Positions 441-27,227 of a stretch of 32,000 bases of DNA are shown here, piece by piece. The DNA comes from Opitutia bacterium KCR 482 (GTDB lineage Bacteria > Verrucomicrobiota > Verrucomicrobiia > Opitutales > Intestinicryptomonadaceae). The position numbers and the translations under genes are program-made. The stretch spans positions 900,001-932,000 of the forward strand of contig CP149973.1 of the NCBI GenBank assembly GCA_029269845.2, read 5' to 3'. The notes under the pieces are model-generated. The model ran no database searches. It had not been told where the DNA came from and saw nothing but the letters and a program-made list of their open reading frames with translations. Every line of letters begins with the position of its first letter. Positions within the stretch are counted from its first letter, which is position 1.

Positions 441-500
441 GGCGCGTTAGAGTGCCGTTCAAACGGTGGCTTTCACGCATGCGCAGGGTGCGTGGCGTAC
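441..500 (+). repeat. X'1: 5'-arm-only half copy of the X hairpin element
   Basis: ggcgcgttagagtgccgttcaaacggtggctttcacgcatgcgcagggtgcgtggcgtac aligns to the 5' arm of X1 (21994-22053). It stops exactly at the apical stem (..gcgtggcgtac) and joins gctacaatccgcaaatat, the same junction as at 22176/22177. Confidence 0.7.
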
Positions 501-597
501 GCTACAATCCGCAAATATGGATTCTCCGCTTACCAATCAACTCCGCTTTTATCCCAAAGCATTTTAAAAATCTTCGTGCGCAAGCACTCACTATTTA

Positions 598-3552: not shown

Positions 3553-3716
3553 AAAATCAATATTCAACGCATACTGTACATTCGCGTTCGCTATGCAAGA
3601 AAAAAATTAAAAATTTTTAAACAAACTCCGTTTCCCTCAAAATCGCGCACCGAAACGGCTCGCCGAGTTTGCCGCAAAAATCCGCGCCTCCTCCCCGCGC
3701 CCGCCGTTATTAGTTG

Positions 3717-3746
3717 TTGACGCCGACGCCGCGCTTAAAATACAAT
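3717..3746 (+). promoter_or_regulatory. Sigma70-like promoter TTGACG-18-TACAAT, 6 nt upstream of the ATG (leaderless candidate)
   Basis: TTGACG at 3717-3722 and TACAAT at 3741-3746. The first ATG of the hydrolase is at 3753, with no SD between them. Confidence 0.45.
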
Positions 3747-3752
3747 GTCCTT

Positions 3753-4655
3753 ATGAAAAATACATATCTGAAACCGCTCTTTGCGGCGTTTGCCGCCGCC
3801 CTCGCATGCCTTTCCGCCGACGCCGAAACCGTCGCGCTTTGGGGCGACGGGCAAATGCAGGGACGCTCCGCGCAGACGGACACCCTCAACAAGCGCAACA
3901 TGTTCAACGGCATAAAAACCCCCGCGCTCGAACTCTTTTTGGCGAAGTCCGACAAGCCGAACGGGCTGGTCGTGATTGCTCCTGGGGGCGGATACCAAAT
4001 TCTCGCATACCCGCACGAGGGCGTTCAGATTGCCGAATGGCTCAACAAATGCGGAATTTCCGCGGCGGTTCTCAAATACAGAGTGCCCGACTTCCCCGCT
4101 GAGGCTCTCGCCGACATTCAGCGGGCGATAAGGCTCGTCCGCGCGAACGCGAAAGCGTGGAATGTCGACCCCGACAAAATCGGCGTAATGGGCTTTTCTG
4201 CGGGCGCAAACCTCTGCGCGCGCGTGTCCACAAACTACGGGAAAGACGCCTACGCGCCCGTGGACGACGCCGACAAGCTCTCCGCGCGCCCCGATGCCAC
4301 ATGCCTGATTTACCCTGCATACTGCGACAGGCAGGGCTTCGACAGACGCTGGAACAACGCAAAGTTCGACTTCGACGCCGACATTCAAACCCTCTACTCG
4401 CCCGCCGAAAACCTCGGCGTAGACAAAAACACGCCGCCCGTTTTCATAGCGCAGTCGCTCGACGACAAAAACTACATCAATTCGGGGATAGCGTATTTTC
4501 TCGCGGCAAAACGCGCGGGGATAAAGGCGAACCTGCACGTTTTCGAAGCGGGCGGGCACGGCTACGGGCTTGCGGCGAAAAGCGGAGGACTCCACGCCGA
4601 CTGGCCCATGCTCGCCGAAAAATGGTTCGCCGCGAGGGGATTTTCAAACAAATAA
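3753..4655 (+). CDS. Secreted alpha/beta hydrolase (acetyl-esterase/lipase-like), paralog 1
   Basis: Signal peptide MKNTYLKPLFAAFAAALACLSADA, oxyanion region APGGGY, nucleophile elbow GFSAGA, and C-terminal GGHGY (His). Confidence 0.88.
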   Translation: MKNTYLKPLFAAFAAALACLSADAETVALWGDGQMQGRSAQTDTLNKRNMFNGIKTPALELFLAKSDKPNGLVVIAPGGGYQILAYPHEGVQIAEWLNKCGISAAVLKYRVPDFPAEALADIQRAIRLVRANAKAWNVDPDKIGVMGFSAGANLCARVSTNYGKDAYAPVDDADKLSARPDATCLIYPAYCDRQGFDRRWNNAKFDFDADIQTLYSPAENLGVDKNTPPVFIAQSLDDKNYINSGIAYFLAAKRAGIKANLHVFEAGGHGYGLAAKSGGLHADWPMLAEKWFAARGFSNK

Positions 4656-4670
4656 GCCTGCATGCTGAAT

Positions 4671-5546
4671 ATGAAAAAATATCTTAATACAATAATTTCC
4701 GCGGCACTTGCTTTCGCCGCGGCAAACGCATACGCCGCCCCGCAAAAGACGGTCGAAATCTGGGACGGCGTAAAAATGGCGGGCGAGGCAAAGCCCTACA
4801 AGGGCAAAAAGACAAACGACAACAACGTCTGGTACTCGGTTCAAGCCCCCGTGCTCGACCTCTACCTGCTTGAATCCGACAAGCCCAGAGGCTTTGTAAT
4901 CGTATGCCCGGGGGGCGCGTACTATGCTTTGTGCATAGGGCACGAGGGCGAAAAAATCGCGAAGTTCCTCAACAAAAAAGGCTATTCGGCGGCGGTTTTG
5001 AAATACCGCATTCCGAACAATTTCGACGGCGCTCTAATGGACGCCCAACGCGCGGTAAGAATCGCGAGGGCTAACGCAAAGGCGTGGAACATCAAGCCCG
5101 ACAAAATCGCGATAATGGGTTTTTCGGCGGGCGCAAGCCTCGCCGCGCGCGCGTCCACAAACTACGGCAAAAAGCTCTACGCGCCCGTGGACGACGCCGA
5201 CAGGCTCTCCGCGCGTCCCGACGCAACCTGCCTGATTTACCCCGCCTACTGCTCGCAGCCCGAAAAAGACCGCCGCTTCAAAAAAGGCGGCGCGAAAGAC
5301 GGCGACTCCTACGACGCGCGCTACAAAATTGCCGACTGGAACGTTGTCGACAAAAACACGCCGCCCGCATTCATCACCCAAACGCAGTTCGACCCCTACG
5401 TAGACGCGTCCATCGCCTACTACCTCGCGCTCAAAGAGGCGAAAGTTCCCGCGCAGCTGCACATGCTGCCCGTCGGCAAGCACGGCTATCAGGACAAAAA
5501 AGTTTTCGAAATGTACGCCGATTGGCTGAAATCCAACGGATTTTAA
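4671..5546 (+). CDS. Secreted alpha/beta hydrolase, paralog 2
   Basis: Signal peptide MKKYLNTIISAALAFAAANAYA. It shares the block ANAKAWN..PDKI..MGFSAGA..STNYGK..YAPVDDAD.LSARPDATCLIYPAYC with paralog 1. An alternative start is at 4662. Confidence 0.88.
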   Translation: MKKYLNTIISAALAFAAANAYAAPQKTVEIWDGVKMAGEAKPYKGKKTNDNNVWYSVQAPVLDLYLLESDKPRGFVIVCPGGAYYALCIGHEGEKIAKFLNKKGYSAAVLKYRIPNNFDGALMDAQRAVRIARANAKAWNIKPDKIAIMGFSAGASLAARASTNYGKKLYAPVDDADRLSARPDATCLIYPAYCSQPEKDRRFKKGGAKDGDSYDARYKIADWNVVDKNTPPAFITQTQFDPYVDASIAYYLALKEAKVPAQLHMLPVGKHGYQDKKVFEMYADWLKSNGF

Positions 5547-13952: not shown

Positions 13953-14837
13953 ATGAAGATTCCGAAAATTCCGTTCCTCCTCGCCGCGCTCGCGGCGGCT
14001 CTCGACGCGCACGCGCTTGTCGTCGCGGGAAGCGATTTGATGAAGCAGGTCGTCGGCGACGAAATCAAGGCGATAGCCGCAAAGAACAACATTCAGGCGG
14101 ACATAAAAATGGAGGGCAGCTACGCGGCAATCGACGCTGTCTCCAACGGAAAGGCGGACTTGGCGGTAATCGCAGTCCCGCGCGGGACAAAACTGCCCGC
14201 CGACTTCGTAGCACTCCCGATTGCGTATCAGGCTGCGTTGGTTGCGGTAAATTCGGTAAACCCGATAGAGGAAATCTCCACAAAACAGCTTTTCGAAATC
14301 TACTCGATGGGCGCGACCGCGCACGCCGAAACTTGGGAACAGGTGGGCGTGAAAAACATCGGGCTTCGCAACATCATGCCGATTACGACAAGCCTTTCCG
14401 ACAACGTCGTGGTGGAGCTTTTCAAGTACGAGGCGATAGACGGAACGAACCTCGGCTCGTGGGTGCACGTCGCAAAGAACGCGGCGGAAATCGGAAACCT
14501 GCTGAGGGGAAACAACTCGGCAATCGCGGTAATCGGCAAATTCGAGGGGCGCGACGGCAACCTGATAAAAATCTTGCCCGTCTCGAAAGCCGACAAAGAT
14601 TCTGGCAAATTTTACGCGTTCAAGCCCGACAGGGAAAACATCGCAAACGGAGACTACCCGCTTACACTGCCGTTTTGCATAGTCTACAAGAAGTCGAACG
14701 CCGAAAAAATCAAGGCTCTTGCAAAAATTCTGCTCGGTGATGATATTGCAAATAAGATAGATAAGTCTGACTTCTACTCCGCGCCCGTAAATTCGAGAAA
14801 AAAATCAATTTTTAACCTTGACATTCCGCAACAATAA
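13953..14837 (+). CDS. Periplasmic substrate-binding protein, PstS-like (PBP_like_2)
   Basis: Signal peptide MKIPKIPFLLAALAAALDAHA. Type-2 PBP pattern (GS..G.ADLAVI..PIAYQALVAVNSVNP..ISTKQL..I). The ORF-maximal start at 13389 overlaps sufT out of frame and is rejected. Confidence 0.75.
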   Translation: MKIPKIPFLLAALAAALDAHALVVAGSDLMKQVVGDEIKAIAAKNNIQADIKMEGSYAAIDAVSNGKADLAVIAVPRGTKLPADFVALPIAYQAALVAVNSVNPIEEISTKQLFEIYSMGATAHAETWEQVGVKNIGLRNIMPITTSLSDNVVVELFKYEAIDGTNLGSWVHVAKNAAEIGNLLRGNNSAIAVIGKFEGRDGNLIKILPVSKADKDSGKFYAFKPDRENIANGDYPLTLPFCIVYKKSNAEKIKALAKILLGDDIANKIDKSDFYSAPVNSRKKSIFNLDIPQQ

Positions 14838-14866
14838 GGCACTATCGGAAGCATAATAAATTTTAC

Positions 14867-19956: not shown

Positions 19957-21653
19957 GTCATTCCAAATTCTCGTTCCGCCCCAAAATGCTCGACTGCATG
20001 AAGGGCTATAACCGTTCCGTTTTCGCCGCCGACCTGTGCGCGGGTTTTAGCGTCGGAATCCTCGCCCTCCCGCTGGCAATGGCGTTCGGCATAGCAAGCG
20101 GCGTCACGCCCGAACAGGGCATCTACACGGCGATTGTCGCGGGCTTTATAATCTCGGTCTTCGGCGGCTCGAAAGTCCAAATCGGCGGCCCGACTGGCGC
20201 GTTCATCGTAATCGTGGCGGGAATCATCGGGCAGTACGGGTATGCGTCGCTTGCGGTGGCGACGCTCCTTGCGGGCGTCTTCCTCATCGTGATGGGCATT
20301 ACGAAAATGGGCAACGCAATCCGCTACATTCCGCGCCCCGTCGTAGTGGGCTTCACAAACGGCATCGCAATCCTCATCATGTCCACGCAGGTGAAGGACT
20401 TTTTCGGGCTGCAAATCGACAAAGTGCCCGAAGACTTCATTCCCAAGTGCGTCGCAATCTGCAAGGCAATCGGCACGACGCACATTCCCACGCTTTTCAT
20501 CGGGCTGCTCTCGATGCTCGTAATCGTCTACTGGCCGCTGTCGTGGCGCAAGCGCATTCCGGGACAAATCGGCGCGATTTTCGTCGGCACCTTCGCCGCG
20601 CTTGCGATGTCGAAGTTCGGCTGGGAAACGGAGACAATCTACACGCGCTTCGGCGACATTCCGAATTCGCTCCCCCAATTCAAATGGATTGACATAGATT
20701 TCGCCAACATCAAAAACCTGCTCATGCCCGCGTTCACCATCGCGCTCTTGGCGGCGATTGAATCGCTCCTTTCGGCGGTCGTTGCCGACGGCATGATTGA
20801 CGACAAGCACGACTCAAATCAGGAGCTTATCGCGCAGGGCATGGCGAACATCGCAGCCCCCTTCTTCCTCGGCATTCCCGCAACGGGCGCGATTGCCCGA
20901 ACCGCAACCAACATCAAAAACGGCGGGCGCACGCCGATTGCGGGCGTCGTGCACTGCGCGGTTCTGCTCTGCATACTCGTGTTCGCCGCGCCCTACGCGC
21001 AATACATTCCGCTTGCGACGCTCTCGGCGGTTCTGTTCGTCGTGGCGTTCAATATGGGCGACTGGTCGGCTTTCCCCGAAATGCGCCTGCTGCCGCGCTC
21101 CGACGACGTCGTATTCGTCTCGACGTTCCTGCTCACCGTGGTTTTCGGTCTGACGCTCGCAATCGAAGTCGGTATGATTCTTGCGGCAATGCTCTTTATT
21201 AGGAGAGTCTCGCAGACGACGCAGGTCATGCTCGTAGACAAAAAGCTCGAAACAGACCTCTCGAAATACTCGCTCGAAGGCAAGGACGTTCCCGAAGGCG
21301 TGATGATTTTCCGAATCTTCGGCGCGCTGATGTTCGGCGCGGCGGACAAGCTTGAAAGCATTTTGACATCGATGGGCGAACGCCCCAAAATCGCAATTTT
21401 GCGCATGCGCACGGTTCTCGCAATGGACGCAACCGCCCTCGACGTGCTCGACAGACTCTACGAAAAATTAAAGGCAAAAGACGTCGTACTCATGATTACG
21501 GGTGCGCACTCCCAGCCCCTCCACATGATGCAAAAATCGGGCTTCCTCAACAAAATCGGCGAAGAATATGTCCTCGAAAATATCGACGCCGCCCTCGAAA
21601 AATCCCGCGAAATCCTTGGGCGCGAGCCGCGCCAGTCGACGGAACTTCGGTAG
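19953..21653 (+). CDS. SulP family inorganic anion transporter with C-terminal STAS domain
   Basis: 566 aa with multiple TM segments. SulP-like motifs (GLLAGITVGILALPLAMAFG-type N-terminus, AQGMANIAAPFFLGIPATGAIARTA), and a STAS-like tail (ILRMRTVLAMDATALDVL). Confidence 0.92.
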   Translation: MSHSKFSFRPKMLDCMKGYNRSVFAADLCAGFSVGILALPLAMAFGIASGVTPEQGIYTAIVAGFIISVFGGSKVQIGGPTGAFIVIVAGIIGQYGYASLAVATLLAGVFLIVMGITKMGNAIRYIPRPVVVGFTNGIAILIMSTQVKDFFGLQIDKVPEDFIPKCVAICKAIGTTHIPTLFIGLLSMLVIVYWPLSWRKRIPGQIGAIFVGTFAALAMSKFGWETETIYTRFGDIPNSLPQFKWIDIDFANIKNLLMPAFTIALLAAIESLLSAVVADGMIDDKHDSNQELIAQGMANIAAPFFLGIPATGAIARTATNIKNGGRTPIAGVVHCAVLLCILVFAAPYAQYIPLATLSAVLFVVAFNMGDWSAFPEMRLLPRSDDVVFVSTFLLTVVFGLTLAIEVGMILAAMLFIRRVSQTTQVMLVDKKLETDLSKYSLEGKDVPEGVMIFRIFGALMFGAADKLESILTSMGERPKIAILRMRTVLAMDATALDVLDRLYEKLKAKDVVLMITGAHSQPLHMMQKSGFLNKIGEEYVLENIDAALEKSREILGREPRQSTELR

Positions 21654-21896
21654 GCTGCAGCCTACACGGCGTCGGAGCTTCGCTCCTTTCGGTGATTATG
21701 CGGCGCGGCTATAACCGCGGGCGCAAGTTGCGCCTCCCTACGGAGCTTCGCTCCTCATAGTGATTACACGCGGCAAGTATACTTGCCGCTTTTCTGTATC
21801 AGTTCGTATTGGCTTCGCCAATTACTCGTGTTGGGACTGCCGAACAGTAGAGAGAAACAGTTTAAAATAGACGCGCATTGCGCGAAAAAATAAAAA

Positions 21897-21934
21897 GCGG
21901 AAATTCCAAGACTTGGAATCTCCGCTTACTTTTT
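21897..21934 (+). terminator. Terminator-like hairpin inside R2 (possible end of the SulP transcript)
   Basis: gcggaaattccaag-a-cttggaatctccgc (one A-C mismatch) followed by ttacttttt and preceded by an A-rich tract. The R1 counterpart (346-369) keeps the hairpin but lacks the T-run. Confidence 0.45.
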
Positions 21935-21993
21935 AACTAAACTTTTATCCCAACGCATTCTAAAAAACTTCGTGCGTTAGCACACATTTGTTA

Positions 21994-22115
21994 GGGGCGT
22001 CAAAGTGCCGTTCAGGCGGTGGCTTTCACGCACAGGCAGGACGCGTGGCGTACTTCTGTACGCGAGCGGTCTGACTGCGCGGGGAAACGCCGCATCAACG
22101 GTGCTTTCACGCCCC
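21994..22115 (+). ncRNA. X1: full 122-nt rod-like hairpin element (candidate structured RNA)
   Basis: ggggcgt/acgcccc, a C-C mismatch, aaagtgccgtt/aacggtgcttt (two G-U pairs), gcgg/ccgc, and the apical gcgtac-ttct-gtacgc. The conserved 3'-arm string agcggtctg is present. Confidence 0.5.
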
Positions 22116-22116
22116 G

Positions 22117-22176
22117 TGCGCGTCAAAGTGCCTTTATAAGGGTGGCTTTCCTGTGCTCGCAGGGCGCGTGGCGTAC
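22117..22176 (+). repeat. X'2: 5'-arm-only half copy of X
   Basis: Its 41-nt 3' stretch is identical to the 5' arm of X2 (ataagggtggctttcctgtgctcgcagggcgcgtggcgtac). It is truncated at the same apical position as X'1. Confidence 0.7.
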
Positions 22177-22274
22177 GCGACTATCCGCAAATATAAGTCG
22201 GCTCACCAACCTAACAACTCCACTTTTATCCCAACGCAACCTAAAAATCTTCCGCGCCGTGCGCTGTAATTTTA

Positions 22275-22397
22275 GGGGCGTCAAAGTGCTTTCATAAGGG
22301 TGGCTTTCCTGTGCTCGCAGGGCGCGTGGCGTACTTGTCGTACGCGAGCGGTCTGCGGGTACAGGGAAACGCCCTTAGGGAAGTACTTTCACGCCCC
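22275..22397 (+). ncRNA. X2: full 123-nt rod-like hairpin element (candidate structured RNA)
   Basis: ggggcgt/acgcccc, a C-C mismatch, aaagtgctttc/ggaagtacttt, taaggg/ccctta, cctgtgctcg/cgggtacagg, and the apical gcgtac-ttgtc-gtacgc. Confidence 0.5.
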
Positions 22398-22404
22398 GTG
22401 CCGC

Positions 22405-23787
22405 TTAGAAGAGACGTATGCGCGAGGGCAGGAACTCGCTGCGGTAGGCGTAGAGCGACTTTATGTACTTGTCCGCCTTCGGATAGTTCAGGAACGACAT
22501 CGTCTTCGGGTCGTACACCAGCGGAATGTTCGGTTCGCAGAGCGCGACCATTCCCAGCAACGCCATTTCCGTGAACGGAGCCGCGTAGTCGAAATTGCCA
22601 ACCGACTGCCTGCCTTCCAAGCAGCAGATTGCCCATTCCTTGTGCGGATTGTTCGGGGCAACCGAGCGGGGAATCGTCTTCTTCGGGAGCGCGCCCGATT
22701 TCGCCAAATCCTTCATGCGCGAAGCCGGCCAAATGCGCGAGCCTACGCCGTATTCGTTGGTGTAGACTGTTTCCTTTGTGCCCACGATGAATGTCGCGTT
22801 GTTGTTGCGCGGGTCGTCGAGGAACGACTTGTCCACGCGCTTAATCGCCTTCGGCTTTCTGCCGCCGTCGTACCAGTGCAGGCGGATTTTTCCGCCGACG
22901 CCGCGCTCGTTTGCGAACGTCATAACCGACGACGCCTGACTCGGCCAGCTGTAATCGTTGAAAGGTGTGGAATTGCCGACAACCTCCTGCGGGAAGCCGA
23001 GGTCGAACGCCGAATACGGAACGTCGAGGAAGTGGCACGCCATGTCGCCCGCAGCTCCCGTACCGTAGTTGCGCAGACCGCGCCAGTTGAACGGAACGAA
23101 CGCCTTGTTGTAGGGCTGGTAGGGCGCGACGCCGAGCCACAGGTTGTAGTCGAGCGTGGCGGGCACGGGCTGACCCGCAGGCATTTTGAGGTCGCCCTGC
23201 GGCCAAATCGGGCGGTTTGTCCAAATGTGGATGTCTTCGATTTCACCGAGGATTCCGGCTTCGTACCATTCGCGGATTACGCGCCAGCCCTCGTTGGTGT
23301 GCCCCTGATTGCCCATTTGCGTGATGACGCCAGCCTTTTTGGCGAGACGCTTCAATTCTTCCGCTTCCCAAATTGTGCGGGTAAGTGGCTTTTCGCAGAA
23401 GACGTGCTTGCCGTTGGCAATTGCCCACGCGGCAATCGGGTAGTGCATGTGGTCGGGAGTGCAGACGGCGACGGCGTCGATGGAATCGCCGAGCTTGTCG
23501 AACATCACGCGGTAGTCGCGGAAGCGGGGAACTGCGGGGAAATCCTTGTAGGCCTTTGCCGCGCGGACGTCGTCAACGTCGCAGAACGCGGTGAGCTTGA
23601 CCCTTTCGAACGCGCCGAGCGACTTGACCGCCGCATAGCCGCGGCCGCCGCAACCGACAACCGCCACGCGGAGCAGTTCGTTTGCGCCGAATTTTTTGGT
23701 TTCGCCGAACGCGGAACGTCCGCCGAGGAACATAGCGGCACTGCCGAGCAACGCCGAATTTTTGAGGAACTCTCTTCTGTTGAACAT
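22405..23787 (-). CDS. Gfo/Idh/MocA family oxidoreductase with Tat-type signal
   Basis: N-terminus MFNRREFLKNSALLGSAAMF (twin-arginine-like), Rossmann motif LRVAVVGCGGRG, and the typical EKP (CEKPLT) motif. Confidence 0.92.
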   Translation of the reverse strand: MFNRREFLKNSALLGSAAMFLGGRSAFGETKKFGANELLRVAVVGCGGRGYAAVKSLGAFERVKLTAFCDVDDVRAAKAYKDFPAVPRFRDYRVMFDKLGDSIDAVAVCTPDHMHYPIAAWAIANGKHVFCEKPLTRTIWEAEELKRLAKKAGVITQMGNQGHTNEGWRVIREWYEAGILGEIEDIHIWTNRPIWPQGDLKMPAGQPVPATLDYNLWLGVAPYQPYNKAFVPFNWRGLRNYGTGAAGDMACHFLDVPYSAFDLGFPQEVVGNSTPFNDYSWPSQASSVMTFANERGVGGKIRLHWYDGGRKPKAIKRVDKSFLDDPRNNNATFIVGTKETVYTNEYGVGSRIWPASRMKDLAKSGALPKKTIPRSVAPNNPHKEWAICCLEGRQSVGNFDYAAPFTEMALLGMVALCEPNIPLVYDPKTMSFLNYPKADKYIKSLYAYRSEFLPSRIRLF

Positions 23788-24110
23788 GTTTTAGTCTTTG
23801 TAGTTAAGTAAAATCGGGGGAAAGCCCGCGCGGAGGCGGCATTTTCGAAAGGACGTACGCCTTGCGGCGGGCGAGGCTCGCGACTCCCCTTAAACATGTA
23901 AAATTCAAAAAGAAGTGCCAAAATAGTCAACAATTTTTTGCGTCCAAAAGCCGCGCCGAGCATGCTGCGGCGCAATTTTTCGAAATTCCGTTAAAAAATT
24001 TAAAGAAAACGCTTGATTTGTCCGAAAAAAGAATAGAGTATTATGACGGTTCGCGAGAGATTTGCCGCGGCAAGTGTCGCCCGAACCGTCAACCTCAATA
24101 GAGGCGTTCT

Positions 24111-24521: not shown

Positions 24522-27227
24522 ATGACACATGCGAAATTTATTTTTGCCGCAGGCGCGGCGTTCGTGCTCGCGTCGGCCGCCGCAACTGCGAAAAACTACG
24601 GCGCGCTCGAAATAGAGCCGAAAGGCACGGCGGTTTCGAACGGGACGAAAATGTCGGTTGTGTGGCGTTTCGTAAGGCAGGAGGAAGCCGTAAAAATAGG
24701 CTCGGAAAAATCGAGTGAAAAGCTCTACGAGTTGTCGGGCGCGATTTCGACGAAAAAAATCGGCGAAATGAAAATCGCCCAAAGGGTAGAAAAAATTTCG
24801 GACTCGCGGACACGCTTCGAGGCGGAAACCGAAATAGTGGGCACGCCGCCGCGCGGCTCGAAGCTCCGCCCGTCGTTCCAGTTCCACCTGCCCGCCGACG
24901 TCTTCGACGGCAGGATTTTCGCCGACGGCAAAAGCGTCGCGCCGGAGACAAAACAATTTTCGGCGTCGGAGCTTTCCATACAGTCGGAAAACGGCGAGCT
25001 TAAAATAAGCGGGAAGCTCGACGTAGCGATAAAGGAGAGTGTGCGGCAGAAAGTGCTGAAATACCGCTCGATTTCGATAATGTTCGACGAGCTTGGCGGC
25101 GGAAAATACAAGACGGCTCTCGACTTCTCGTTCGACAAGAACAAAAAGCCCGTCCCGCTCGCGAACGAGTACACAGTGGGGGAATCGCGCGACTACATGC
25201 CGATGCCGAACCCGCGCAAAACAAAAAAGAACAGCGCGCTCGACTTCTCCTTCCTGCTCGACGCCCCCGCGGGTAAATACGGCTTCGTCAGGGCTGCCGG
25301 CGACTCTTTCGTGTTCGAAAAACGCCCCGACCGCAAGGCGCGGTTTTTCGGCGCAAACGTCTGCCAGACCGCAACCATTCCGTCGGGAGAGTCGGCAACC
25401 GCGCTCGCCGAAGAGTTCGCTGCGTCGGGCTACAACACCGCCCGCCTCCACCAGTTCTCGCCAATTCTGCGCGGCAAAAAGGGCGACTTCGCCGAGCTGA
25501 ACCAAAAGAACATGGACAAGTTCGACTTCCTCTTCGCCGAGCTTAAAAAGCGCGGAATCTACATCACTACCGACTTCTACGCCTCGGGCAGGCTCTTCCC
25601 CGAAGAATTCGACGACGTACCCTACCGCGGCGACAACATGAAGGCGCTGTTTTTCGTCTCAGACAAGGCTCGCGCGGCGTTGAAGCGGTTTATCGCAAAC
25701 TTTCTCAACCACGTCAACCCCTACACGGGCTTGGCGTACAAGGACGAGCCTGCGCTGGTTTTCGCGAGCGTCGTCAACGAAGACTGCATCGAAAACGCGC
25801 GGAATTTCGTAATCCGCACGCACCTCGACTACGACATCGCAAAGCCGCTTTACGAAAAGTGGCTCGCGGGAAAGCCCGCCCTCCCCGACGGAATCGACGA
25901 GAACGAAAAATTCCAAATCTTCCTCGTCGAGCGCTACGAAAGCTTCTACCGCGAAATGTCCGCCTATATAAAGTCAATCGCGCCCAACATGCTGCTCACC
26001 GACCAGACAAACGGCGGCAAGCTCCTCGCGACGGTCATGGCGGAACGCTACGACGTCTACGACACCCACCTCTACAACGGGCACCCGCTGTTCTACGAAA
26101 ACCGCTTCACAACCCCCATGTATGTAGACCCCGCAGACCCGCTCGAAAAGCGCGGCGGCGCGTTCATGAAAATCGGCGCAACGCGCCTGCTGACAAAGCC
26201 CACGGCGATTACCGAGTGGGACTACGTGCGCCCCAATCCCCGCGCGGCGGTCGGCGGGCTGCTCGTCGGCGCGTACTCGGCGCTGAACGGCGTCGACGGG
26301 CTTTGGCAGTTCTGCTACACGCACCACGAAAAGAACATCTGCGGGAATCCGCCGCTGGGAATTTTCGAGACAGCAGGCGACGCCGCGAGAACGCTCGCCA
26401 ACAAAATAGGCTCGCTGATGTTCCTGCGCGGCGACATCGCCGAAAGCGGAAAAACCGTGGCGCTTGCCGTCTCCGACAAGCCGTTCGACAAATGCAAAAA
26501 CGGCGACGCGTACAAATTCTGCGACGCCCTCGCGGAGCTTGCTCTTGTGGCGAAGTCGGGAGTCGTTGCGGCGGCGGACATGCCCTCGCTCGAAAAAAAG
26601 CTCCCCAAAGACACCGCCGCCGTGCTCTACACCGACGCCGCGTTTGCGCCGAAAGACCGCAAGACTTTCGGGACGTCGGAAAGCGCGGAAAAAATCGCGA
26701 ACAGGGTTTTCCTCGACGACGGCGGAATCAAAAACGGCGTCTACACAAGCTCGACGGGAGAGCTGAAACTCGATTCGGCAAAAGCCCGCTGGAAGGCGGT
26801 CGCGCCGCGAATCGAAGCGTTTGCGCAAAACGGATGCTCGGCGCAAAAGGGGAAATTCGCGCGGGTCGAAAACACGGACGGCTGGTCGATTGTCGCGCTG
26901 TGCTCGCTCGACGACGCGGAGCTTGGGAAGTCGAAGCGCATTCTCGCCGCGCACATAAGCAACATCATGAACGGCGGCGACAGATTCGGCGGGCGCAACT
27001 TTGCGACCCTCCTCGAAAAGGGAAGCGGCGGCTACCTGCTCGCGCGGGCGGAGTCGAAAATCGAGTTCGCAAAAAGGCTCGACGGCTTCAAATGCTTCGC
27101 GCTCGACGCAACGGGCAAACGCATTGCGGAAATCCCGATTGAAAGAACCGAAAACGGCGCAAAACTCGCCCTTTCCACCCACAACAAGTTCGGCGCGACA
27201 ATCGCCTACGAGCTTTCCGCCGAATAG
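24522..27227 (+). CDS. Large secreted protein with central clan GH-A-like (beta/alpha)8 glycoside hydrolase domain (family not assigned)
   Basis: Signal peptide MTHAKFIFAAGAAFVLASAAATA. The central region (FFGANV..GYNTARLHQF..ASVVNED..ITEWDY) has the NE acid/base and later E-nucleophile pattern of GH-A enzymes. The flanking roughly 250-aa N-terminal and 250-aa C-terminal regions are unassigned. Confidence 0.75.
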   Translation: MTHAKFIFAAGAAFVLASAAATAKNYGALEIEPKGTAVSNGTKMSVVWRFVRQEEAVKIGSEKSSEKLYELSGAISTKKIGEMKIAQRVEKISDSRTRFEAETEIVGTPPRGSKLRPSFQFHLPADVFDGRIFADGKSVAPETKQFSASELSIQSENGELKISGKLDVAIKESVRQKVLKYRSISIMFDELGGGKYKTALDFSFDKNKKPVPLANEYTVGESRDYMPMPNPRKTKKNSALDFSFLLDAPAGKYGFVRAAGDSFVFEKRPDRKARFFGANVCQTATIPSGESATALAEEFAASGYNTARLHQFSPILRGKKGDFAELNQKNMDKFDFLFAELKKRGIYITTDFYASGRLFPEEFDDVPYRGDNMKALFFVSDKARAALKRFIANFLNHVNPYTGLAYKDEPALVFASVVNEDCIENARNFVIRTHLDYDIAKPLYEKWLAGKPALPDGIDENEKFQIFLVERYESFYREMSAYIKSIAPNMLLTDQTNGGKLLATVMAERYDVYDTHLYNGHPLFYENRFTTPMYVDPADPLEKRGGAFMKIGATRLLTKPTAITEWDYVRPNPRAAVGGLLVGAYSALNGVDGLWQFCYTHHEKNICGNPPLGIFETAGDAARTLANKIGSLMFLRGDIAESGKTVALAVSDKPFDKCKNGDAYKFCDALAELALVAKSGVVAAADMPSLEKKLPKDTAAVLYTDAAFAPKDRKTFGTSESAEKIANRVFLDDGGIKNGVYTSSTGELKLDSAKARWKAVAPRIEAFAQNGCSAQKGKFARVENTDGWSIVALCSLDDAELGKSKRILAAHISNIMNGGDRFGGRNFATLLEKGSGGYLLARAESKIEFAKRLDGFKCFALDATGKRIAEIPIERTENGAKLALSTHNKFGATIAYELSAE

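Follow-up and report, generated by a model that had tools for sequence, protein, structure and literature searches.

Does a long hairpin that recurs in a bacterial chromosome represent an RNA gene, a structure of single-stranded DNA (ssDNA) or a dispersed repeat? The question is raised by a stretch of 32,000 nucleotides from Opitutia bacterium KCR 482 (contig CP149973.1, positions 900,001 to 932,000; hereafter the window), in which an irregular hairpin of about 120 nt, designated X, occurs in three full copies. An earlier note on this DNA had described these copies as a candidate undescribed structured RNA. That proposal stands in so far as X is a conserved, covarying hairpin without an Rfam match, but X is a high-copy module of an interspersed, intergenic repeat of Opitutia-type Verrucomicrobiota, not a stand-alone RNA gene present three times, and it belongs among the dispersed hairpin repeats rather than with unique non-coding RNA genes. 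In what follows, the plus strand is the strand on which X folds best, and X_rc is the reverse complement of X.

Hairpin X in the window

The three full copies, X1 (21994–22115, 122 nt), X2 (22275–22397, 123 nt) and X3 (598–720, 123 nt), lie on the plus strand and share one irregular, rod-like hairpin of 49 bp, as had been described; X2 and X3 are the last units of two arrays, array 2 and array 1, respectively. As plus-strand RNA, they have minimum free energies (MFEs) of −75.7, −89.2 and −73.0 kcal/mol and z-scores of −8.2, −11.8 and −8.3 relative to dinucleotide shuffles (200 per copy), none of which matched the native MFE (0/200 for each of X1, X2 and X3). The covariance model R1 scores X1 at 113.6 bits in sense versus 53.7 bits in antisense, and X2 and X3 at 135.2 and 129.8 bits. 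The minus strand of these copies adopts the same shape, 10–25 kcal/mol more weakly (X_rc: MFE −61 to −66 kcal/mol, z −6.5 to −8.5).

The window contains five instances of the 5' motif GCGTCAAAGTGC-N12-GGCTTT, all of them on the plus strand, where 0.05 would be expected. The two occurrences outside the full copies are copies reduced to the 5' arm, which the earlier note had not listed, just as it had not listed the leader with its small hairpin H2 (see below) or the multi-copy nature of X. One of them (22118–22178, plus strand) directly follows X1 and its GT and comprises columns 2 to ~72, with a collapsed apical loop and no 3' arm; it was recognized by the motif match and by reading the sequence, and belongs to repeat family D3 (81% to the reference). 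The other (441–502, plus strand), of the GTTAGAG subtype, was recognized by the motif match and aligned to the orthologous unit in L096. A filter-free covariance-model scan of the window revealed no further full copy.

X had not been recognized as any known RNA motif, and no Rfam family matched it. At gathering thresholds, Rfam 15 yielded only two tRNAs in the whole window; in the region 21600–22450, at E ≤ 10, the best match was MIR3440, a plant microRNA precursor, with 38.6 bits against a gathering score of 105, which is generic hairpin likeness.

Family size and distribution

In a scan of one genome per species, the 5' motif was found on 26 contigs of the metagenome-assembled genome (MAG) 'Opitutia bacterium UBA4654' and in three other Verrucomicrobiota/Opitutales MAGs; the remaining matches look like chance. 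A metagenome scan with a core pattern added 40 loci. Orthologous genes of the window show 94.7% identity with UBA4654 and 98.6% with an OGFM01 metagenome contig. With a covariance model built from 14 copies, copies score 100–137 bits on the sense strand and 45–70 bits on the antisense strand. The core pattern is absent from viral_contigs, and a blastn search of plasmids and phages with the leader plus X2 gave no match; a phage or plasmid origin was rejected on these grounds. An exact-protein look-up for strain variants returned nothing beyond the source contig (ENA ERZ24778160 NODE_122), and no description of the X family was found in the literature.

MAG and metagenome contigs very often stop inside X or inside the composite of which it forms part (L013 and L035 versus L089; L025 versus L106 and L113; L102, L056 and L061), and flanks that are joined in one assembly are split or otherwise joined in another. 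The repeat thus fragments assemblies, and it may mediate rearrangements.

Covariation and strand polarity

The compensatory changes that had been reported in the closing, apical and middle helices are real. Between window copies, the closing helix is GGGGCGT/ACGCCCC or GGCGCGT/ACGCGCC and the apical stem GCGTAC/GTACGC or GCATAC/GTATGT, and the middle helix is variable. These changes extend through the family. In an initial set of 23 copies, 96.4% of pair cells were paired and double changes were found in 26 of the 49 pairs, a result equalled by none of 500 shuffles, and control structures slid along the same alignment were 29–52% paired. The full set comprises 56 distinct copies of 117–124 nt from the window and related contigs, including three divergent lineages; here 95.6% of pair cells are paired, 35 of the 49 pairs show double changes, no shuffle (0/500) is as good and the slid controls reach 30–52%. 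Outer helices can be wholly unlike in sequence and still complementary (AAGGCGT/ACGCCTT and ACCGTTG/CAACGGT, for example).

The mismatches are strongly polar. The three window copies contain 17 G.U and two A.C pairs on the plus strand; the earlier note had counted about a dozen against two. Across the 56 copies, there are 315 G.U cells and 17 A.C cells on this strand. G.U is present in at least two copies in 15 columns, A.C in four; several columns switch between G.U and Watson-Crick states, and the A.C cells are mostly singletons. Calculated with RNA parameters, the plus-strand fold surpasses the minus-strand fold in stability in all 56 copies (−77.7 versus −62.2 kcal/mol), and with DNA parameters in 55 of them. 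A strand-neutral palindrome is indeed insufficient to account for so clear a polarity. These observations show that selection has maintained the rod fold, and that it acts on the single-stranded form of the plus strand.

The earlier note had gone further and called the plus strand the functional RNA strand. The polarity bears out the choice of strand; transcription of that strand is an inference, and no convincing plus-strand promoter was found. The predominance of G.U over A.C marks the folded strand and not whether the molecule is RNA or DNA, since DNA hairpins, too, tolerate G.T better than any other mismatch. X could act either as RNA or as ssDNA.

Strand-biased mutation does not account for the polarity. 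By established strand-asymmetry rules, C-to-T changes accumulate on the strand exposed by replication or transcription. The X-oriented strand has a negative GC skew at 32 of 40 loci and is also the template strand of the abutting gene, and the rules and the skew together predict the opposite polarity. An explanation based on the replication strand was rejected for the same set of loci: the skew, negative in 32/40, is confounded by gene orientation and is opposite to what either ssDNA on the lagging template or a mutation bias would need.

Invariant core and subfamilies

Within this variable rod, the upper part is nearly constant. A G-C bulge opposite a single A is present in 56/56 copies and a UUU/GAA step with a U.G wobble in 55/56; four pairs of the apical stem GC.UAC/GUA.G are found in 56/56 copies and the fifth in 55/56. 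A G.G mismatch is near-invariant, its two positions being G in 50/56 and 52/56 copies. Together, the GC bulge opposite A, the U.G wobble and the G.G mismatch make an asymmetric core that resembles a surface for protein recognition. Two other features had been called invariant and are not so family-wide. The C-C mismatch is C.C in most of the 56 copies, its 5' base being C in 39, T in 16 and A in one; the GTTAGAG/CTATAAC subfamily has T.A or T.G at this site, plus G.A two pairs further in, and a distant lineage has A.A. The 3'-arm string 'agcggtctg' becomes AGCRGTCYG across the family and diverges in distant lineages.

On contig ERZ808035 NODE-2 (L112, 7118–7236, minus strand), X has a distant, AT-rich relative. 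This relative keeps the core (GGCTTTTG, GCATAC, GTATG and AAGAAACGC), is located in a uxaC-kdgK-eda-HAD operon, in the interval from kdgK to eda and on the antisense strand, and has an even stronger polarity (plus −49.4 versus sense −29.8 kcal/mol). Judging from this sequence, the X family may reach beyond the GC-rich Opitutia lineage. In a second species (L109, 1–830; L063, 3147–3393; L111, 2030–2273), internal array units carry an insert of ~105 nt, itself built of hairpins (GGGGGC..GCCCCC and CACCTTTG..CAAAGGTCG), which splits the first 8 nt of X from the remainder of the 5' arm. Units with this insert lack the 3' arm and recur with a tandem period of 272 nt.

Location at stop codons

In ~45 of 47 cases, the distance between the end of an array's terminal X and the stop codon of a long open reading frame (ORF) encoded on the other strand is −12 to +23 nt. 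In the window, X2 ends 7 nt before the stop codon (TAA, 22405–22407) of a convergent gene encoding, according to Pfam, a GFO/IDH/MocA oxidoreductase, and X3 ends 11 nt before that of a convergent Zn-peptidase gene (TGA, 732–734) in a thyA-folA operon. All 10 sampled neighbours have Pfam domains and are genuine housekeeping genes (AdoHcy hydrolase, DHODH, Rho, GpsA, PFK, Nth, HemB and others). X contains the stop codon at ~13 gene ends, such that X_rc encodes the final residues GA*, GAL* or GAS*; the repeat has therefore rewritten protein C-termini. Where there is an upstream plus-strand gene, the left end of the composite also abuts or encodes its end. X is thus fixed at the 3' borders of genes, with its fold-competent strand antisense to the abutting gene.

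Several individual junctions may be recorded here. An X array directly follows the stop codon of the Rho gene (L009/L078). Junctions at which Gly-Ala(-Leu/Ser) and the stop codon are encoded by X_rc were read at L035, L016, L013, L110, L095, L093 and L089, the genes including those for HemB, a PLP decarboxylase and a transporter, among others.

Leader, cassette and mosaic

The minimal unit consists of CTTC, a small hairpin (H2), ~10 nt ending in TTTA, X and GT, and arrays of such units occupy the space downstream of housekeeping genes. TTA precedes X in 50/56 copies (TTTA in 39/56) and GT follows it in 47/56. In the window lineage, each X is preceded by a longer leader, aligned over 35 units, which comprises a hairpin H1, a box CTTTTATCCC, a box CTAAAAA(A/T)CTTC, the 4–5-bp H2 and ~10 nt ending in TTTA. 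The TAAAA(A/T) box lies 4–5 nt before H2, and the leader boxes were found solely before X. On the plus strand, H2 loops are all GNNA, or GCGAAGC is formed. H1 has a polarity opposite to that of X, the minus strand being more stable in 25 of 35 units, and in first units H1 is followed by a T-run on the minus strand, making a canonical intrinsic terminator. RNAalifold on 30 extended units recovered the X rod and no joint structure of leader and X.

The leader of X1 (21897–21993) is complete: H1 (21897–21925), the box CTTTTATCCC (21942–21951), the box CTAAAAAACTTC (21960–21971), H2 (GTGC-GTTA-GCAC, 21972–21983) and a linker ending in TTA (21984–21993). Its H1 and the upstream A-run form a minus-strand intrinsic terminator of 15 bp followed by TTTATTTTTT, according to a terminator scan. 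The leader of X2 (22179–22274; family D1) has a degenerate H1, the two boxes at 22223–22232 and 22241–22252, H2 (CGCGCC-GT-GCGC, 22253–22264) and the linker TGTAATTTTA (22265–22274). In array 1, the leader of the first unit (346–440) contains an H1 resembling a minus-strand terminator (346–369), boxes at 389–398 and 407–418, H2 (419–430) and a linker (431–440), and that of X3 (503–597) an H1-like hairpin, boxes at 546–555 and 564–575, H2 (GTGC-GCAA-GCAC, 576–587) and the linker TCACTATTTA (588–597). All four leaders are on the plus strand.

Upstream of each array, again on the plus strand, small REP-like hairpins form a mosaic of fixed order; 13-nt palindromes with CGTC/CTAC tags are among them. 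The mosaic before array 2 (21611–21896; families D5/D6) contains the small hairpins GGGCGCGAGCCGCGCC and GGCTGCAGCC, the CGTC/CTAC-tagged GGAGCTTCGCTCC (twice), the hairpin CGCGCATTGCGCG and a palindrome, GCGGCAAGTATACTTGCCGC, which is followed by TTTTC and was identified in the terminator scan as a plus-strand terminator-like site. The mosaic before array 1 (54–345) has the same module order, which recurs at at least 20 UBA4654 loci. The whole composite measures 450–660 nt and is present at at least 20 loci per genome. As a separate observation, the last ~13 codons and the stop codon of the SulP transporter gene are supplied by REP-like modules at 21611–21653 (GGGCGCGAGCCGCGCC, then GGAACTTCGG-TAG); the UBA4654 orthologue (L056, 690–890, minus strand) has an extra module of ~190 nt at this site and consequently a different C-terminus.

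The signals around X differ between lineages. In the window lineage, X has no U-tract: its plus strand runs into GT and the stop codon, and its minus strand continues with TAAA and H2. The distant lineages L088, L098 and L115 have A-run/T-run flanks that do fit a bidirectional terminator, with a T-run after X_rc. A promoter scan found no plus-strand promoter in the leader. The tRNA promoters of this genome read TTGACA/TTGCAT, N19 and TATCGG/TATGCG, and the leader has no such −35 box; a plus-strand sigma70 promoter was accordingly rejected, given the null scan, the missing TTGACA-type −35 and leader boxes that occur nowhere else. The tRNA genes themselves, Gly-GCC and Lys-CTT (14800–14866 and 3553–3610, minus strand), are preceded by an A/T-rich stretch, TTGACA or TTGCAT, 19 nt, and TATCGG or TATGCG, boxes that may represent the promoter style of this genome.

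Dynamics of sites and copies

X is kept at the same gene end in species whose genes are ~80–85% identical, and the individual copy at such a site is far less stable. At orthologous loci with a flanking gene 90–99.9% identical, the terminal X copies are 62–77% identical in eight of 10 pairs, another subtype having been substituted. The window and L096, with flanks ~94% identical, likewise have terminal H2-X cassettes of unlike subtype, and they differ by the clean gain or loss of a 151-nt cassette (H2, 10 nt, X, GT and CTTC) bounded by CTTC; L096 is a low-coverage contig, and this single case of gain or loss carries an assembly caveat. Junctions of other kinds are also found: in L116, compared with L090, a new X plus GT is joined to an older, 5'-truncated X, and at several loci X-GT is separated from the stop codon by short GCGCCGT remnants. 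Arms have been swapped in the chimeric copies L037 and L108, which have lost the fold that their orthologues keep; the crossovers therefore fall in the conserved apical core. Occupancy of the sites is thus stable between species, and the X copy is exchanged between subtypes by recombination in the apical core.

The G.U-rich L037 and L108 were also considered as evidence for an RNA and set aside, since both fold poorly as RNA and L108 alone folds poorly as DNA. Nested insertion of a leader and X into the apical loop of an older X was rejected because there is no orphan 3' arm after the terminal X, and the half-plus-leader junction is itself inherited. No repeated ORF or ORF-bearing element was detected in 190 kb plus 127 kb of same-assembly flanks, and a tblastn search of ~525 kb of flanks, using RAYT, IS608 and IS200 TnpA queries, gave no Y1/RAYT homologue below E = 0.3. 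A linked transposase was dropped as a candidate on the basis of these two results.

Comparison with known repeats

In size and form, X recalls ERIC/IRU, imperfect palindromes of ~127 bp in Enterobacteriaceae that are considered to be miniature inverted-repeat transposable elements (MITEs): both are long imperfect hairpins, intergenic and present in many copies. There is no sequence relationship, according to Rfam and BLAST, and ERIC is flanked by TA, X by TTA on the left and GT on the right. ERIC occurs in both orientations, whereas X has a strict orientation relative to the abutting gene, an antisense fold polarity and an arrangement in cassette arrays with a leader and H2. The two families are alike in other respects: ERIC is often located at the 3' ends of genes and co-transcribed, has truncated and interrupted copies, and shows paired changes that keep the structure (PMC3184786 and work cited there). 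Like MITEs of the ERIC/Correia type, which are foldbacks of about 100–160 bp, X is a long, non-coding foldback with terminal inverted repeats, here a 7-bp GC clamp and complementary arms, on at least 26 UBA4654 contigs and in dozens of copies on metagenome contigs. It shows no TA target-site duplication, as the TA on the left (50/56) belongs to the leader and TA follows on the right in only 2/56 copies. A TA-targeting MITE was rejected for these right-flank statistics and because TGA stop codons are also abutted.

REPs are defined as palindromes of 20–40 nt with a terminal GTAG or CGTC tag, and GTAG/CGTC REP superfamilies are abundant in Opitutus terrae (PMC3733652). The mosaics around X resemble REP/BIME arrangements in that small hairpin modules, CGTC/CTAC-tagged 13-nt palindromes among them, are clustered in fixed order after genes, and X shares the REP/BIME placement, being extragenic, mostly downstream of genes and in mosaics with other motifs. 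X itself carries no REP tag, its CGTC lying inside the closing helix (GGCGCGTC) rather than unpaired. Moreover, REPINs are doublets of small palindromes, whereas X is a single 49-bp rod with non-palindromic arms and a strict antisense polarity. Conserved hairpins dispersed at gene ends are also known as SPRITE in S. pneumoniae, TRIT in M. tuberculosis (PMC3993855) and Correia elements, which additionally carry promoters (PMC3184786). The A-run/T-run flanks of distant-lineage X are like those of a bidirectional intrinsic terminator. The window-lineage X does not qualify as an intrinsic terminator: it has no U-tract on either side, its stem is far longer and its invariant, asymmetric upper core is not explained by termination; the canonical minus-strand terminator is H1. 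Palindrome-associated elements of the IS200/IS605 type and TnpB omega-RNA scaffolds are marked by tnpA or tnpB in at least some copies, a conserved tetranucleotide target 5' of the element and unlike hairpins at its left and right ends; for X, no TnpA match was found in the ~525 kb of flanks, where no search aimed at tnpB was made, and TTTA precedes X in 39/56 copies, in one lineage and not in distant lineages. Taken together, size and invariant core, a single orientation at stop codons, antisense polarity and H2-X arrays set X apart from ERIC, REP/BIME, SPRITE/TRIT and integron attC sites, the last of which are considered below.

Possible modes of action

The active form of X can tentatively be proposed, with well under even confidence, to be a plus-strand RNA hairpin serving as a barrier or end-protecting structure at the gene border. 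The source of this RNA would be the leader, with its TAAAA(A/T) box, or else convergent transcription towards the gene. Probably bound by a protein, the 49-bp hairpin would act as an orientation-specific barrier or end protection at the 3' border of the convergent gene, so that antisense transcription into the gene would be limited or the 3' untranslated region (UTR) of the gene would acquire a stable antisense partner. The family would spread and be homogenized by recombination or gene conversion, not by a linked transposase. RNA is favoured because sites are retained over the long term, no linked mobilization gene was found in ~525 kb of flanks and the core resembles a protein-recognition surface. 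Several observations weigh against this proposal. No plus-strand promoter is recognizable in the promoter scan, nor a −35 of the genome's tRNA type in the leader. The lack of a U-tract after window-lineage X means that X is no canonical plus-strand terminator, the plus-strand terminators of the mosaic sit upstream of X, and the sole strong terminator beside X (H1 plus T-run) serves the minus strand, so the likeliest transcript is the mRNA of the gene, carrying the weaker X_rc. An insulator needs no tight contact with the stop codon, and the G.T wobbles and GNNA or GCGAAGC loops are also compatible with ssDNA. If X is a plus-strand RNA, the family would constitute structured antisense elements that, genome-wide, adjoin the 3' ends of core genes, in a phylum that has been little studied. 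A bolder version, which seems improbable, is that the H2-X cassette is a portable antisense RNA gene producing a ~160-nt leader-driven plus-strand RNA, fully complementary to the 3' UTR of the abutting gene and bound at its core by a dedicated protein; dozens of genes (rho, hemB, ahcY, pyrD, gpsA, H+-PPase and others) would then be under one recombination-spread system of post-transcriptional control or antisense insulation.

The opposite choice of molecule, ssDNA, is somewhat unlikely. X would be the structured end of a non-autonomous mobile element moved in trans by an HUH-type enzyme (RAYT or IS200/IS605-like) or another hairpin-directed enzyme, which would read the plus-strand DNA hairpin and its mismatches and cut its base at TTA|GG (left) and CC|GT (right); in that case, a transposition intermediate and not an RNA would underlie structure and polarity. 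This would suit a many-copy family with no coding capacity independent of terminal inverted repeats, the sharp boundaries (TTA before in 50/56, GT after in 47/56), the joining of X-GT to variably truncated linkers or 5'-truncated X copies, the CTTC-bounded presence or absence of a cassette and the copies inserted in the last codons of genes. The DNA parameters favour the plus strand in 55/56 copies, GNNA loops and GCGAAGC, a DNA mini-hairpin of great stability, are found in H2, and GTAG/CGTC-tagged REPs, in which Opitutus terrae is rich (PMC3733652), share the mosaics. Yet no Y1/RAYT homologue was found in ~525 kb around the copies, and no repeated ORF, the flanking motifs give way to A-run/T-run flanks in distant lineages and site occupancy is conserved across species. 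Orientation follows the neighbouring gene (~45/47) and not merely one strand of the DNA, the plus strand seems to serve as template both for the leading strand and for transcription, being the least exposed strand, and known HUH hairpin substrates measure 20–40 nt, against a rod of 49 bp. In the event of an ssDNA function, X would reveal an unrecognized mobilization or recombination system placing 120-nt hairpins at stop codons, and a hairpin-directed ssDNA mobility system targeting stop codons is the alternative novelty to a portable antisense gene. Selection might instead act on the mRNA of the gene, in which X_rc directly after the stop codon would, like REP or ERIC elements, hinder decay, terminate transcription in part or, as a hairpin close to the ribosome, tune termination and expression; the polarity would be a by-product. 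X_rc is almost certainly transcribed, because the H1 plus U-tract minus-strand terminator lies downstream. Moreover, X_rc folds strongly and is followed by a T-run in distant lineages, and X is placed strictly 0–12 nt after the stop codon or overlapping it, in one orientation to the gene. REPs act as 3'-UTR terminators and stabilizers (bioRxiv 10.64898/2026.03.23.713779), and mRNA stability is affected by ERIC and other MITEs that are co-transcribed at 3' ends (PMC3184786). A sense 3'-UTR element is nevertheless unlikely, as selection on the sense fold would leave A.C cells on the plus strand, opposite to what is observed (315 G.U versus 17 A.C, with toggling confined to the plus strand), and as the sense hairpin is the weaker in 56/56 copies and markedly so in L112 (−29.8 versus −49.4 kcal/mol).

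Two further explanations have very little to recommend them. In an integron attC site, a folded bottom-strand site for a tyrosine recombinase stands after an ORF. Vibrio cholerae repeats are ~123 nt long, and X resembles them in logic only: a hairpin of ~120 nt, structure conserved over sequence, conserved unpaired bases, contact with the stop codon and a folded strand antisense to the ORF. X has neither R''/R' core sites nor cassette ORFs; of the 56 copies, three have GTTRRRY after X and none has RYYYAAC before it, a consensus test by which this reading is largely refuted. The neighbours are syntenic housekeeping genes, not cassettes, the copies are dispersed over dozens of loci, array units lie 130–280 nt apart with no ORF between them, and no integrase was seen in the inspected flanks, which were not searched exhaustively; an attC-like role is highly improbable. 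It is equally hard to credit that X is a plain DNA palindrome with no single-strand function, the complementarity of its arms being kept by intramolecular template switching. Such quasi-palindrome correction is a known mutational process (PMC3820800) that could mimic compensation, and slippage-type rearrangements do occur in the arrays, but it predicts perfect Watson-Crick arms and no polarity, in contradiction with the conserved mismatches and bulges, invariant in 56/56 copies, and the wobble ratio of 315:17.

With 35 covarying pairs, the covariation record of X is among the richest for a bacterial hairpin motif, and its protein-binding-like core is a candidate for a search for binding partners. 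Either way, the family breaks contigs and drives local rearrangement in Opitutia MAGs, and it provides a test case for telling RNA-level from DNA-level selection on repeats.

Other features of the window

Two observations concern other parts of the window. A direct repeat of 300 nt (4013–4312 and 4940–5239; 75% identity, spacing 927 nt) lies inside the adjacent plus-strand ORFs 3714–4655 and 4662–5546, which are therefore probably tandem paralogous genes. A 48-nt near-perfect palindrome (24044–24091), with overlapping arms of 29 nt that are 86% complementary, is located in the divergent intergenic region between the oxidoreductase gene (ending at 23787, minus strand) and an ORF of 901 amino acids with no Pfam match (24522–27227), and could be an operator or a terminator.

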